Source of the DNA: Halarcobacter sp.
GTDB lineage: Bacteria > Campylobacterota > Campylobacteria > Campylobacterales > Arcobacteraceae
Reading direction: 5' to 3'
DNA length: 64,000 nt
Assembly: GCA_048571215.1 (NCBI GenBank)
Contig: CP182352.1
Coordinates: 1,728,001-1,792,000 of the forward strand
In this document: positions 57,366-61,978 of the stretch, in pieces
Layout: every line of letters starts with the position of its first letter
Position numbering within the stretch: the first letter of the stretch is position 1
Notes under the pieces: model-generated
What the model was told of the DNA's origin: nothing
Databases searched by the model: none
What the model saw: only the letters and a program-made list of their open reading frames with translations
Position numbers and translations under genes: made by a program

Positions 57366-57500
57366 TTTGTTTTATATAAATAGGAGATTCATTTTTTTTA
57401 ACTACTTTTTTTTATCTTCTAAAAAATAAAAAGATGAAACTATAAAAATACTAAAAACTAGAAAAAAAAGAGAATGTATTTTTTATACTCTTCATAATAA

Positions 57501-58253
57501 TCAAGCATACATAGATTCTTTTTTTATGTCATTATAATGTTTTAAAATAATATTATATCCATCTAGTCTTTCTTGATGTTGGTCTATAACTTTTGGGTGA
57601 GTTTTAGGATTTGCTAATGCTTCTTTATGCATTGAGATAACATCACCTAAAAATTTATTAAAATCTATATTCATATTATCATAATCCCATTTCCACATAT
57701 TTTCTGTTTCAGCTTCAACATAAAAAGATGGCATTAATTCATATCCAAAGTGAGCCTGCGCCACGTTCATTTTTACTTGACCTAAAACTGTCATTCTATA
57801 AATATCATCATCTAACTCTCTTGCTGTTCTGTATAAGGCTTCATTAAAGGTTTTATCATTTGTTGTTCGTGTAGCAAGTAACATATCGCCAATTTGATTT
57901 GTTTTATATACAATAGGTGTATTATTAATCTGTTCTTTAGTAAAATCACCTTGTGGATAAGCAATATACTCAAACTTTTCTGCTTGCTCATAAGTTAAGC
58001 TATCCATCTCAGCCATTGTAATTTGATCATCTTTTAGTATTTCCCTAAACAGTTTTCTATCTTCAGGTGATAAAGAATCAAAATAGTTAAACTGATCCAT
58101 ATATTTTATATATAGCCCTACCTCTTCTTTCTCTTCTGTTTTTTCTGAACTTGTTAGCATTGAAGAGAAAGAGTTTTCTTCTGTCTTTTCTGTTTTTGTT
58201 ATATTATTTGTTTGAGTATAGTAGTTTGTATATGTATTATTTGATACTTGCAT
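57501..58253 (-). CDS. Hypothetical protein
   Basis: 250-aa ORF with AAGGAG SD; Thr/Asn-rich N-terminus; no recognised domain. Confidence 0.75.
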   Translation of the reverse strand: MQVSNNTYTNYYTQTNNITKTEKTEENSFSSMLTSSEKTEEKEEVGLYIKYMDQFNYFDSLSPEDRKLFREILKDDQITMAEMDSLTYEQAEKFEYIAYPQGDFTKEQINNTPIVYKTNQIGDMLLATRTTNDKTFNEALYRTARELDDDIYRMTVLGQVKMNVAQAHFGYELMPSFYVEAETENMWKWDYDNMNIDFNKFLGDVISMHKEALANPKTHPKVIDQHQERLDGYNIILKHYNDIKKESMYA

Positions 58254-58468: not shown

Positions 58469-58768
58469 ATGTTGAGTAGTGCCATTAAAAGATTTAGAAT
58501 GATTTCTGCAATAGAGGGTATATCTTTTTTACTTTTAGTTTTTATTGCCATGCCAATAAAATATATAGGAGAAAACCCTTATCCTGTTAAAATATTTGGA
58601 ATGGTCCATGGGGTTTTATTTATAATATTTATGATTTCATTATTTGAAGCTAAAAAAAGAACTAACTTTGATACCGGTTTTATGTTTCAGCTTTTTGTTT
58701 TATCACTAATCCCATTTGGGGCAATTTTTATAGAAAAAAAGGTTAAACCCTTAGATAATAAAATTTAA
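58469..58768 (+). CDS. DUF3817 family membrane protein
   Basis: FRMISAIEGISFLLLVFIAMPIKY, GMVHGVLF, SLIPFG; start 58469 after AAGGA. Confidence 0.85.
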   Translation: MLSSAIKRFRMISAIEGISFLLLVFIAMPIKYIGENPYPVKIFGMVHGVLFIIFMISLFEAKKRTNFDTGFMFQLFVLSLIPFGAIFIEKKVKPLDNKI

Positions 58769-60987
58769 ACTTGTGAGTATATCTGTCCTACAGATATACC
58801 TGCATCATTTAGAGGGATTTTTTTAGAGTAATAAACTTTTATAAAATTGTCATTTAGTTTTTTAGTAACCAACTGTAAAAGTGTTTTATTTTGAAAAACT
58901 CCACCTGTCAATACTACAGGCAATCCCCTGTAATTTGTACTAATATCAAAAATGATATCAACTAACATATTTATAAACTTTGTACAGATTTTCTTATCAT
59001 CATTATCTTTAACTATCTGTTTTATACAAGGACTTATATCGATTTTATCTTCAAGTAATTCATAAGTATAACTATCTTTGATAACATCATCATAAAACAT
59101 CTCTATTTTAAGCCCTGTTTCACCCTCATAGCTTTGTTCATGTGCAATATTGGCAAAAGATGCTATTGCATCAAAAACTCTTCCTATAGAGCTTGTAAGT
59201 GGAGAGTTTAAATCATTTTCCCACATCTTATGATATAAACCTATTTCACTATATGAAAACTTTTTTAAAAGTGGCAAATCTAATAATCTTATCTCAGCTA
59301 AACTATAGTTATCAAATAGCAATGACAAGGCCACTCTTTTGGGTTCTTTTATACTCTTTTCACCACCTAAAAGTTTAAAATAATTTATATGATTTATCCT
59401 TTTATACTCTTTTTTACTTGCTAATAAAACCTCTCCACCCCAAATCTTTCCATCTTCACCAAAACCTGTACCATCAAAACTAAAGGCTAATACTTTTTCA
59501 TCTAAATTATATTCACACATAGTTGATAAAACATGAGCATGATGGTGTTGTATTTGTACCACTTCACAGTTTTGTTTCATAGCCCATTTTGTACTCTCAT
59601 AATTTTTATGTTTATCACAAACTATTAAATCTGGTTCAAAATCGTAAAATCTTTTAAAGGTTTCAATTGTTCTTTCAAAATATTCCATAGAGCTTATTGA
59701 ATCCAAATCTGCAATATGGGGTGAAACTATTAAAGTATCATCAAAAGCTAATGAAATAGTAGATTTTTGATTTGCACCTAAGGCTAATATCTTTTTATTT
59801 AATTTTTTAGCAAGTTTAAATGAACTTGGGGCAAAACCCCTTGCATTTCTTAAGATTTGTAGTTCATCATTTACAACTTGTACTACAGAATCATCACAAG
59901 CATTGATTATGTCCCTATTAAAATCCAAAACATAATCTACAACCTTATCAAGCTTTATCAAAATCTCATCTTTAAATCTAATAATTGGTTCCCCACTTAG
60001 ATTTGCACTTGTTGCAACTATTGGATTACTTAAATACTTGAAAAGGAGCAAATGTAAAGGAGTATAAGCTATAAAACAACCTACCCTATCAATATTTGGG
60101 GCAACAAAACTGCTTAAACCCATAGAGTTTGATTTTACTACTGTGATTGGTTTCTCTTTTGAGTTTATTATCTCCTCTTCTTTTGGAGTAATTGTAAGAT
60201 ATTTTTTTATTTGCTTAAGAGATTTGAACATAACAGCCAAAGGTTTTGTTGGTCTATTTTTTCTTTGTCTTAGCTGTTCAACAGCTAAATCATTGGTTGC
60301 ATCACAAACAATATGAAAACCTCCCAAACCTTTTATAGCTACTATACTACCTTCGTTGATAAGTTTTGCGAGGTCTTTTAAGGCTTCATTATCTTTTGAT
60401 ATTTTTATGCCATTTTTATCTAAAAGTTGTATTGTAGGTCCACACTCTCTACAAGAGAGTGGTTGAGCATGGTATCTTCTATTTGATGGGTCTTTATACT
60501 CTTTTTTACAACTTCTACAAAGGGTAAAATTATCCATAGAGGTATTTACCCTATCATAAGGAACTGTTTTTATAATAGAATATCTAGGACCACAGTTTGT
60601 ACAATTGGTAAAAGGATACTCAAATCTTGGATTATTTACATCACTTATATCATCAATACAATCTTCACATATGGCGATATCAGGAGATATAATTGTAGTT
60701 TTATTTGAGTTTGATTTACTTTTTACTATCTCAAAAGTATTGAACCCTTCAATATCCCTTTCTAAACAGTTTATCTCAAATATTTTTGATAAAGGTGGAG
60801 CAAGTTGCGTTATATCATCTATAAAAGACTCAATAGCTAACTCATCACCTTCTATGCAGATATTTACACCCGTATCAGAGTTATTTACCCAACCATTTAA
60901 AGAGTATTTTGTTGCTAAGTTATAAATAAAAGGACGAAAACCAACCCCTTGAACTACACCTTTTATCTCTATTGCAAGTGATTTCAT
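58765..60987 (-). CDS. hypF: Carbamoyltransferase
   Basis: GVVQGVGFRPF, CTNCGPRYS, KGLGGFH, HHHAH, DGTGFGEDG..WGGE, GGVFQN. Confidence 0.97.
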   Translation of the reverse strand: MKSLAIEIKGVVQGVGFRPFIYNLATKYSLNGWVNNSDTGVNICIEGDELAIESFIDDITQLAPPLSKIFEINCLERDIEGFNTFEIVKSKSNSNKTTIISPDIAICEDCIDDISDVNNPRFEYPFTNCTNCGPRYSIIKTVPYDRVNTSMDNFTLCRSCKKEYKDPSNRRYHAQPLSCRECGPTIQLLDKNGIKISKDNEALKDLAKLINEGSIVAIKGLGGFHIVCDATNDLAVEQLRQRKNRPTKPLAVMFKSLKQIKKYLTITPKEEEIINSKEKPITVVKSNSMGLSSFVAPNIDRVGCFIAYTPLHLLLFKYLSNPIVATSANLSGEPIIRFKDEILIKLDKVVDYVLDFNRDIINACDDSVVQVVNDELQILRNARGFAPSSFKLAKKLNKKILALGANQKSTISLAFDDTLIVSPHIADLDSISSMEYFERTIETFKRFYDFEPDLIVCDKHKNYESTKWAMKQNCEVVQIQHHHAHVLSTMCEYNLDEKVLAFSFDGTGFGEDGKIWGGEVLLASKKEYKRINHINYFKLLGGEKSIKEPKRVALSLLFDNYSLAEIRLLDLPLLKKFSYSEIGLYHKMWENDLNSPLTSSIGRVFDAIASFANIAHEQSYEGETGLKIEMFYDDVIKDSYTYELLEDKIDISPCIKQIVKDNDDKKICTKFINMLVDIIFDISTNYRGLPVVLTGGVFQNKTLLQLVTKKLNDNFIKVYYSKKIPLNDAGISVGQIYSQV

Positions 60988-61176
60988 AAATTATCCAATA
61001 TATAAGTTTATTTATAATTGTATTGGAAAATCCTTATTGTAAAATTATTTAGACTATCTTATATAAACAAATAAGATAATCAAACATAAATAGGTTCTTT
61101 TTTTATATTATTATAATGTTTTAAAACTCTCACTCTATATAAAATAAAAAGGATTATATATCATATAAATTCAAAA

Positions 61177-61351
61177 ATATTACATCACAAGTTGTACCGC
61201 GAATATCACAACTAATAAAAGGGGGGAGTAAAATTAGCTGTTTGGTAATCTTGTATTTTGATCAAACAAAAAGGGAGTGGGGCACTTGTGATTAGCAAGT
61301 ATAATAAATATACAAAGCTTGGTATTCACGGCACAACTTCTAATGTAATAT
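61177..61351 (-). ncRNA. Candidate structured sRNA (long closing duplex, C/U-rich loops)
   Basis: 32-position stem 61177-61208/61320-61351 enclosing three hairpins; G-U bias favours minus strand; TAAAAT at 61374-61369. Confidence 0.65.
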
Positions 61352-61414
61352 CTTTAATAAAGATTGAAATTTTAACTTTTATATAAATAAACTCCTTTTT
61401 TCTTAATAGTTTTT

Positions 61415-61978
61415 CTAAATTGTAAAATCATTTACTATAGACCTTTTAAAAGAGATTTTTGATATATCTTCTATACTTATAGTCTCATTTTTTATTTTTA
61501 ATTCTACATCCAACTTTTGTAACTCATTGACAAGGGTTTTTTCCATTGTTTTTACAGCTTGAATAATCTCAAAACTCAATTCAAATGCTGTATCATCAGC
61601 AACTCTTTTTGGAATTACACCTAATACATGTGTACTAGGTAAATCACCATTCATCTTTATCATATTTAGAGTTTGAAGCATCTCTACTTCGTGGGCACTA
61701 CCTTGCCAATCTATTTCACTAGGAGCTTTTAAATAATCAAAAAAATAAACATCTCCAGCTTTTGAATTTAAAGCATCGATACAATCAATAACAAAAACCT
61801 TATCAAATCTAACAATCAAAGGGATAAGTCTTTGGGCCAAAGTACCCCCATCAACTATACAAACTCTATTATCTTTTGAATTATATTTATATTTTTCATC
61901 CATATAGTGAACAAAATGTGCTCCTATCCCCTCATCTTGAAATAAGATATTTCCAATACCTAAGATTAATATATCCAT
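61415..61978 (-). CDS. hydD: Hydrogenase maturation endopeptidase
   Basis: LGIGNILFQDEGIG, VDGGT, SAHE. Confidence 0.93.
   Translation of the reverse strand: MDILILGIGNILFQDEGIGAHFVHYMDEKYKYNSKDNRVCIVDGGTLAQRLIPLIVRFDKVFVIDCIDALNSKAGDVYFFDYLKAPSEIDWQGSAHEVEMLQTLNMIKMNGDLPSTHVLGVIPKRVADDTAFELSFEIIQAVKTMEKTLVNELQKLDVELKIKNETISIEDISKISFKRSIVNDFTI

Follow-up and report, generated by a model that had tools for sequence, protein, structure and literature searches.

Gene organization of the hydD–hypF region

The DNA analysed here (the window) comprises 64,000 nt of contig CP182352.1 from Halarcobacter sp. (genome G000) and carries, on its minus strand, hydD of the second hydrogenase operon and the first downstream maturation gene, hypF, separated by 427 nt. 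In the initial annotation this interval had been treated as an ordinary intergenic gap enclosing a long inverted repeat, thereby overlooking a hydE pseudogene remnant. When the arms of the repeat were searched against 61 related genomes, both were found, in six genomes of the same genus, inside an ORF of 536–564 codons located between hydD and hypF. The gap was thus shown to represent the remains of a hydE-type gene (a HypF paralogue), with the arms corresponding to its former codons. Approximately three quarters of hydE is gone from the window; the gap also keeps the stretch from about SIF..TLEVVP to CGTTCDV, interspersed with stops and frameshifts. The features of the region are as follows:

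61415..61978, minus strand: hydD, maturation protease of the second hydrogenase operon (PF01750 and TIGR00072 above cut-off)
61372..61431, minus strand: remnant hydE start of 19 codons that overlaps the end of hydD and runs into a stop; the intact genes of relatives begin with the same overlap
61321..61357, minus strand: 5' arm of the long duplex, former hydE codons around TLEVVP
61208..61320, minus strand: enclosed interior of ~113 nt, former HypF-type zinc-finger codons of hydE
61268..61283, minus strand: second C-rich motif GCCCCACUCCCUUUUU, partly paired; absent from the other three remnants
61208..61241, minus strand: hairpin exposing UUUACUCCCCCCUUUU (loop 61232–61217), from N-P-F codons; candidate anti-SD seed
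61171..61207, minus strand: 3' arm of the long duplex, former hydE codons around CGTTCDV
61076..61126, minus strand: 51-nt leftover of the 3' end of an inserted paralogue of ORF 57501–58253, 90% identical to 57497–57547
61012..61050, minus strand: remnant hydE 3' end (FYNKDFPIQL-stop), 39 nt, 92–95% identical to the three best-matching intact genes shown
58765..60987, minus strand: hypF carbamoyltransferase, first downstream maturation gene (TIGR00143 above cut-off)

The element, consisting of the duplex and its interior, is located just downstream of hydD on the same strand. The 51-nt segment at 61076–61126 is the trace of a paralogue once inserted in the broken hydE and later deleted; ORF 57501–58253, whose 3' end it resembles, is without an NCBIfam family. 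Despite belonging to a dead gene, the hydE tail (61012–61050) contains TACAAT/TATAAA sites and was possibly kept as an internal hypF promoter. At a metagenomic locus, L156, TGGTATAAT is present before hypF in place of the hydE tail.

The hydE product was identified as a degenerate HypF paralogue, with weak hypF, HypF_C_2 and zf-HYPF matches below cut-off (the zf-HYPF match in one intact relative), and its predicted structure aligned with three clusters automatically named 'Protein hydE' at TM scores, normalized by query, of 0.75–0.79. Judged by its position, the weak family matches and the predicted structure, the host gene corresponds to HydE, i.e. a HypF-like protein encoded after hydD in Campylobacterota. 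The operon order in H. pylori is hydABCDE (PMC3903283, excerpt), and hydE is required for hydrogenase activity according to the title of a reference listed in PMC6155014 (excerpt).

Two tandem hydABCDE-type uptake hydrogenase operons followed by a hyp cluster are encoded at G000:C1:1790655-1799731 (window end and beyond). The window genome has lost hydE from the second of these operons and retains an intact, distant hydE paralogue (25% identity) in the first, upstream operon. Loci L144 and L145 (genomes G091 and G070) have no second hydrogenase operon; there, the first-operon hydE is followed by an unrelated gene and then by a hydE that is truncated at its 5' end.

Predicted fold of the element

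Recounting of the inverted repeat upheld the reported pairing of 61177–61208 with 61351–61320, with 27 of 32 positions being Watson-Crick (WC) and three of the five remaining positions forming G-U pairs on the minus strand; of the other two, one is G-U on the plus strand only and one is C.C/G.G. Folding of both strands placed the minus (mRNA) strand far ahead, at −60.7 kcal/mol (z −8.87, equalled by 0/200 shuffles), compared with −41.9 kcal/mol for the plus strand (z −2.64, equalled by 2/200 shuffles). The duplex was found to be longer than first noted, extending over 35 pairs (61357–61321 with 61207–61171) with a mean pair probability of 0.97. Inverted repeats with at least 27/32 WC positions at comparable spacing occur at four sites in the whole 3.6-Mb genome, the element among them, and those with at least 26/32 at nine.

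Among the three inner hairpins that had been proposed, that at 61209–61240 was recovered (P 0.94–1.0), whereas those at 61239–61268 (P ~0.04) and 61284–61300 (P 0.01) were not. The C/U-rich loop claimed earlier was borne out, as the C6 loop of hairpin 61209–61240 is predicted to be unpaired (P=1.0). The sequence described as a linker, GCCCCACUCCCUUUU, is present but partly bound in a 4-bp hairpin (61286–61283 with 61279–61276, P 0.9). The interior (61208..61320), together with the inner halves of the arms, constitutes the predicted excised RNA.

The duplex within intact hydE genes

This hydE type is present in 19 of 24 genomes of the same genus and in 53 of 184 genomes of the family. Following removal of 11 duplicates and of one locus lacking the gene start, 39 distinct hydE coding sequences were extracted and scanned, without use of the window sequence, for the best 24-bp long-range stem in the first 700 nt. 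In 17 of the 39 intact genes the best stem was located at the register of the element (nt 206–212 with 377–386); of 34 additional hydE-like genes, comprising 24 retrieved by an order-level search and 10 first-operon paralogues, none gave this register.

Covariation was assessed in 21 sequences, comprising 19 genes that fold in this manner and two remnants, a set picked after the folds had been seen. Within this set, 90.5% of cells were paired, compared with 31–54% for slid registers, and two-sided changes were observed at 9 of the 24 pairs, a result matched by 0/500 shuffles; these shuffle counts are not probabilities, because the sequences are kin and not independent. RNAalifold independently recovered 18 of the 24 duplex pairs and predicted no inner helix for the set, leaving the duplex as the sole structure common to all carriers. 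On the mRNA strand, the non-WC cells of the core comprise 27 G-U, 2 A-C and 44 other mismatches, and the ratio of G-U to A-C identifies this strand as the target of selection. In the duplex, third codon positions face one another and paired synonymous changes are present; six arm codons also show a higher degree of fixation (0.86) than 55 others (0.64). A 24–35-bp long-range duplex is therefore selected on the mRNA strand inside intact hydE. The selection on RNA structure originally suggested for the window's duplex is accordingly supported for the minus strand by the fold z score, the covariation and the G-U bias: the duplex is real and is under RNA-level selection on that strand.

On the hydCD tree, carriers of the stem group together, their distribution involving at least three changes. 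Named members of this group are assigned to Halarcobacter, Malaciobacter and Arcobacter sp., and the duplex is present in Malaciobacter canalis and M. halophilus (L075 and L076); among the genes scanned, the element is confined to part of the Halarcobacter/Malaciobacter group. In two genomes inside the carrier clade, G004 and G022, the stem is weak, degenerate, remodelled or lost.

Retention of the element following loss of hydE

Of the 184 family genomes surveyed, 60 encode this hydD. Among those without an intact hydE, the element is kept in the window genome and in G002, and is absent from G015, G093, G114, G117, G183 and G184; in G198 and G134, hydE is interrupted by a contig end. G015 falls in a stemless clade, G093, G114, G117 and G184 belong to genera without the stem in scanned hydE genes, and none was scanned for the genus of G183. 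In G002 the element makes up the entire interval between hydD and the convergent gene (z −7.3). A metagenome scan with a pattern requiring the C-run yielded five matches, three of which were unrelated, whereas the other two, L154 and L156, represent additional copies standing alone downstream of hydD (z −8.3 and −8.5, respectively); in L154 the element fills the 3' region between convergent genes. The window genome and G002 are sisters (support 100/100), and HydC+HydD of L154 and L156 are 91–94% identical to those of G002, for which reason the four remnants probably derive from one hydE loss.

The window and G002 are near saturation, agreeing at 134 of 259 fourfold sites and retaining G/C at 6/32, while their arms are identical at 15/21 and 14/21 positions with pairing intact. 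They share ACTCCCCCTTTT at a position where intact genes mostly have AATCCYTTT or AACCCCTTT, encoding N-P-F. The CUCCCCCUUU motif is predicted to be unpaired in all four remnants (P≥0.94); its conservation is tested by the comparison of the window with G002 only, because the search that retrieved L154 and L156 demanded the C-run. In the part of the interior upstream of the C-run, G002 matches L154 at 85/86 positions (fourfold sites 68%) and L156 at 74/83 (fourfold sites 67%), and L154 compared with L156 shows a marginal excess (75/83 versus 83%, p 0.045), fourfold sites being an imperfect neutral baseline for AT-rich non-coding DNA. Interior folds differ, being kept neither across intact genes nor between the window and the G002-type remnants. 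The element thus outlived the decay of hydE, and its interior and unpaired CUCCCCCUUU motif are conserved in the window lineage.

In intact genes, the C-motif is explained by the protein sequence (N-P-F codons): CCY proline codons at this site are also present in seven of the eight non-stem genes having Pro there, and L041 is a stem-bearing gene without the C-motif. In G017, the second operon is absent at the locus and the element is absent too; from its HypF start and hydA1 leader, this genome looks like a member of the same lineage as the remnants, a placement made without a tree.

Similarity searches and excluded element classes

No Rfam 15 family, housekeeping RNA or riboswitch matches the element: Rfam searches of the window returned three chance snoRNA matches, all outside the element, those of five related loci returned none, and ARAGORN found no tRNA or tmRNA match. 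BLAST and a covariance model both placed the element at a single locus, with no dispersed copies, and this single copy rules out a MITE or other dispersed repeat, a possibility that had been raised at the outset. A riboswitch or four-way junction was rejected, the interior not being conserved in fold and two of the three hairpins being unsupported. An antisense small protein was likewise discarded: a 32-codon plus-strand ORF follows the G-rich tract in the window, but the tract of G002 is followed by GTG-TAA, and a type I toxin-antitoxin reading was accordingly dropped. Resemblance to attC sites or CRISPR repeats was rejected, given the single copy and an arm order that is the reverse of the attC layout.

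Search for target mRNAs

Genome-wide duplex scans against 3121 crudely called genes yielded no outlier target, and a strict perfect-target pattern was found at no real gene start in the window genome; a loose pattern gave at least 120 matches in viral contigs. Target prediction, which had been recommended for the C/U-rich motifs, thus provided neither a standout nor a covarying target. A LysR gene ranked top in the window genome, but its site was the best for three of four seeds, and the cognate site was best for one seed only; this missing cognate preference, together with 94% DNA identity of the G002 copy, undercuts the candidate. The LysR locus (G000:C1:3351052-3351951 and L317), with its 94% identity between the two genomes being well above that of the hyd genes, is possibly a recent transfer, and the genes divergent from it are presumably of a tricarballylate-utilisation type. 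The hydB2 gene ranked 48/3121 in the window genome and showed weak pairing in G002.

The first gene of the neighbouring paralogous hydrogenase operon, hydA1, ranked 30/3121. It was noticed among ten genes examined, and the difference corresponds to a single event on the tree, the SD reading AAGGGG in the window genome and G002, and AAGGAG in 13 other genomes and then five more (in the underlying pattern search for hydA1 starts, 13 of 19 regions were not hydA1). Such an SD is found in 35 of 3121 genes. As AAGGGG is found in G017 as well, where both the second operon and the element are missing, hydA1 serves as a post hoc lead only.

Proposed mechanism and alternative explanations

The reading that we favour, with a probability of roughly 0.55, is that the element specifies an operon-internal RNA, cut from the hydABCDE mRNA by RNase III and carrying a C-rich anti-SD seed. 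On the hydABCD(E) mRNA, the element would lie within the first 130 hydE codons, and it would be transcribed by read-through from the hydrogenase operon, its own promoter not being used. Folding would take place when ribosomes are absent from the hydE stretch, as would always be so in the remnants, whereupon RNase III would cleave both arms and release an RNA of ~120–140 nt with its ends still paired; owing to these paired ends, the freed RNA is proposed to resist exonucleases. The same cut would divide the message between the structural genes and the maturation genes that follow them. The C-rich single strand would pair with G-rich ribosome-binding sites and repress translation and, because the seed would act from an operon-derived RNA, regulation would be tied to expression of the hydrogenase operon. 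The RNase III gene (rnc) is present in all five genomes examined. A mode of action like that of CJnc190 is the leading mechanism in view of the minus-strand selection, the covariation, the single copy, the lack of a housekeeping match and the conserved unpaired motif. Retention of the long stem after hydE decay suggests that the hydrogenase message also yields an undescribed small regulatory RNA.

Among the alternatives, the one that fares best, although we consider it the less probable account, is a purely cis-acting mRNA element, serving as an RNase III site or, if left uncleaved, as a 3' barrier; it would stabilise the hydABCD part of the transcript or separate it from hydE/hypF and set the ratio of the two, with any released fragment being waste. 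It overlaps with the excised-RNA reading, since the same cut also splits the operon mRNA, and the two differ in whether the released piece acts. A cis role would fit the duplex being the only structure shared by all carriers, its position directly after hydD (as the whole 3' region between convergent genes in G002 and L154), the TGGTATAAT promoter-like site for hypF that follows the duplex in L156, and its absence from G017, a genome without the second operon; cuts made by RNase III in rpsO-pnp and within the arfA coding sequence provide a precedent (PMC8708148, excerpt). However, it leaves unexplained the retention of a 106–125-nt interior while the flanks have been trimmed to the arms, does not predict an interior more conserved than fourfold sites, and offers no reason for an unpaired C-run in a genome of 28.5% G+C.

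A more elaborate form of the excised-RNA reading, which we regard as doubtful, is that the zinc-finger codons of hydE double as the code for a trans-acting sRNA, which RNase III would excise only in the absence of hydE translation. After decay, the N-P-F codons would have been sharpened to a stronger anti-SD seed, and the sRNA would now regulate other mRNAs, possibly that of the hydA1 small subunit (SD AAGGGG in the clade and AAGGAG elsewhere). If true, living genomes of this group would document every step by which a coding sequence becomes a free sRNA.

The stand-alone sRNA gene originally put forward, RepG/CJnc190-like and driven by its own promoter at TAAAAT 61374–61369, is improbable. The hexamer is indeed present, 12 nt upstream of the duplex, TAAAAT or TAAAGT adjoins the arm in other remnants, and promoters internal to coding sequences are a recognised source of sRNAs (PMC13501541, excerpt). 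Nevertheless, TAAAAT occurs at 3.4 per kb per strand in non-coding DNA here and is uninformative as a promoter, its spacing from the arm varies among remnants, the promoter scan was at chance (5 sites versus 4.9 expected, with nothing above chance on either strand) and the terminator scan found none after the duplex. In the window, the hexamer begins with the stop codon of the truncated hydE start.

A neutral or DNA-level origin (an inverted repeat that arose by chance in hydE codons and was perfected by template switching, or a DNA site such as an operator, MITE or recombination site), for which the other long inverted repeats of the genome, the weak or lost duplex of G004 and G022 and the six duplex-free genomes with this hydD but no hydE might speak, is very improbable and largely refuted by the strand-specific G-U:A-C bias of 27:2, the paired synonymous changes in the arms, the single copy and the retention in non-coding DNA at near-saturated divergence.

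Comparison with known regulatory RNAs

With regard to the initial assignment to RepG/CJnc190-like sRNAs, the CJnc190-like architecture of a flanking duplex and a C/U-rich motif was retained, whereas the stand-alone, promoter-driven gene, the three-hairpin interior and membership of either family were not. CJnc190 of Campylobacter jejuni is matured by RNase III from a flanking duplex (PMC8687705, excerpt); similarly, the element has a long intramolecular duplex around a putative mature RNA and a predicted exposed C/U-rich single strand, in the same phylum and with RNase III present. CJnc190 differs in having its own promoters and an antisense partner, CJnc180 (PMC8687705, excerpt), whereas the element is located on the operon sense strand, lies within coding sequence in relatives and is known from sequence and predicted folds. 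RepG of Helicobacter pylori shares a C/U-rich loop able to pair with G-rich mRNA leaders, yet it is a separate gene transcribed as a mature sRNA, with no flanking processing duplex in the excerpted account (PMC8687705). The single-stranded C/U-rich loop is predicted for the element in 4/4 remnants (P≥0.94); a separate gene was not found, the element being hydE-homologous, on the operon sense strand, with a chance-level promoter signal and no terminator. As no separate gene, promoter signal or antisense partner was seen, the element was filed under neither RNA, and its apparent descent from hydE codons makes homology to them unlikely.

The element resembles OxyS and other sRNAs of decayed genes in being intergenic here while relatives have, in the same context, a gene whose coding strand contains it; it would also remain in the regulon of its parent gene (PMC8825220, excerpt). 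In contrast to that type, the structure was already selected inside the intact gene, in its 5' quarter, and it relies on a long-range duplex rather than on a parent promoter and terminator; the sRNA–ORF overlap table of PMC8825220 is restricted to Enterobacterales. As proposed here for the element, RsaC (mntABC) and DicF are freed from polycistronic mRNAs by RNase III at double-stranded sites; they derive from 3' or intra-operonic non-coding regions (PMC9438474, excerpt), whereas the element overlaps protein-coding zinc-finger codons. Internal sRNAs of coding sequences are a recognised but poorly studied class (PMC13501541, excerpt). As in rpsO-pnp and arfA, a duplex between or inside genes may alter the stability of part of a transcript (PMC8708148, excerpt); unlike those cases, the interior and C-rich motif are conserved after gene loss.

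Novelty and additional loci

We conclude that this is a real, undescribed RNA element: no description of it was found in the openly accessible literature searched. What sets it apart is a covarying long-range duplex in the zinc-finger region of an intact gene that is again found free-standing after gene loss. It represents a rare natural experiment, in which one RNA structure occurs in an intact gene, weakened in some relatives and alone after decay; as it is seen at all these stages, the origin of an sRNA from coding sequence becomes testable by synonymous mutations in cultured Malaciobacter/Halarcobacter. A second testable question is whether RNase III makes sRNAs from mid-gene in Campylobacterota. 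The element also points to post-transcriptional control of hydrogen uptake in marine bacteria, a subject on which no title or abstract was found for these organisms.

Further structured or repetitive loci were observed in the window genome. At G000:C1:2588328-2588533, where two response-regulator genes converge and their 3' ends abut, a 28/32 inverted repeat spans the junction; it probably reflects paralogue similarity, but on the minus strand it would fold into a long duplex (−73 kcal/mol). An intergenic long stem (27/32) around two hairpins at G000:C1:608142-608284, with the plus strand being better (−52.5 kcal/mol), is a possible structured RNA. A long stem with inner hairpins is located at G000:C1:100235-100376, between a gene that we take to be Rho-like and a convergent ORF that is presumably CcdB-like. 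Finally, repeated short ORFs starting with MFTSLVS.. and having a common G-rich leader, at G000:C1:808737-811803 and 2555290-2559457, look like cassette arrays of a polymorphic system.
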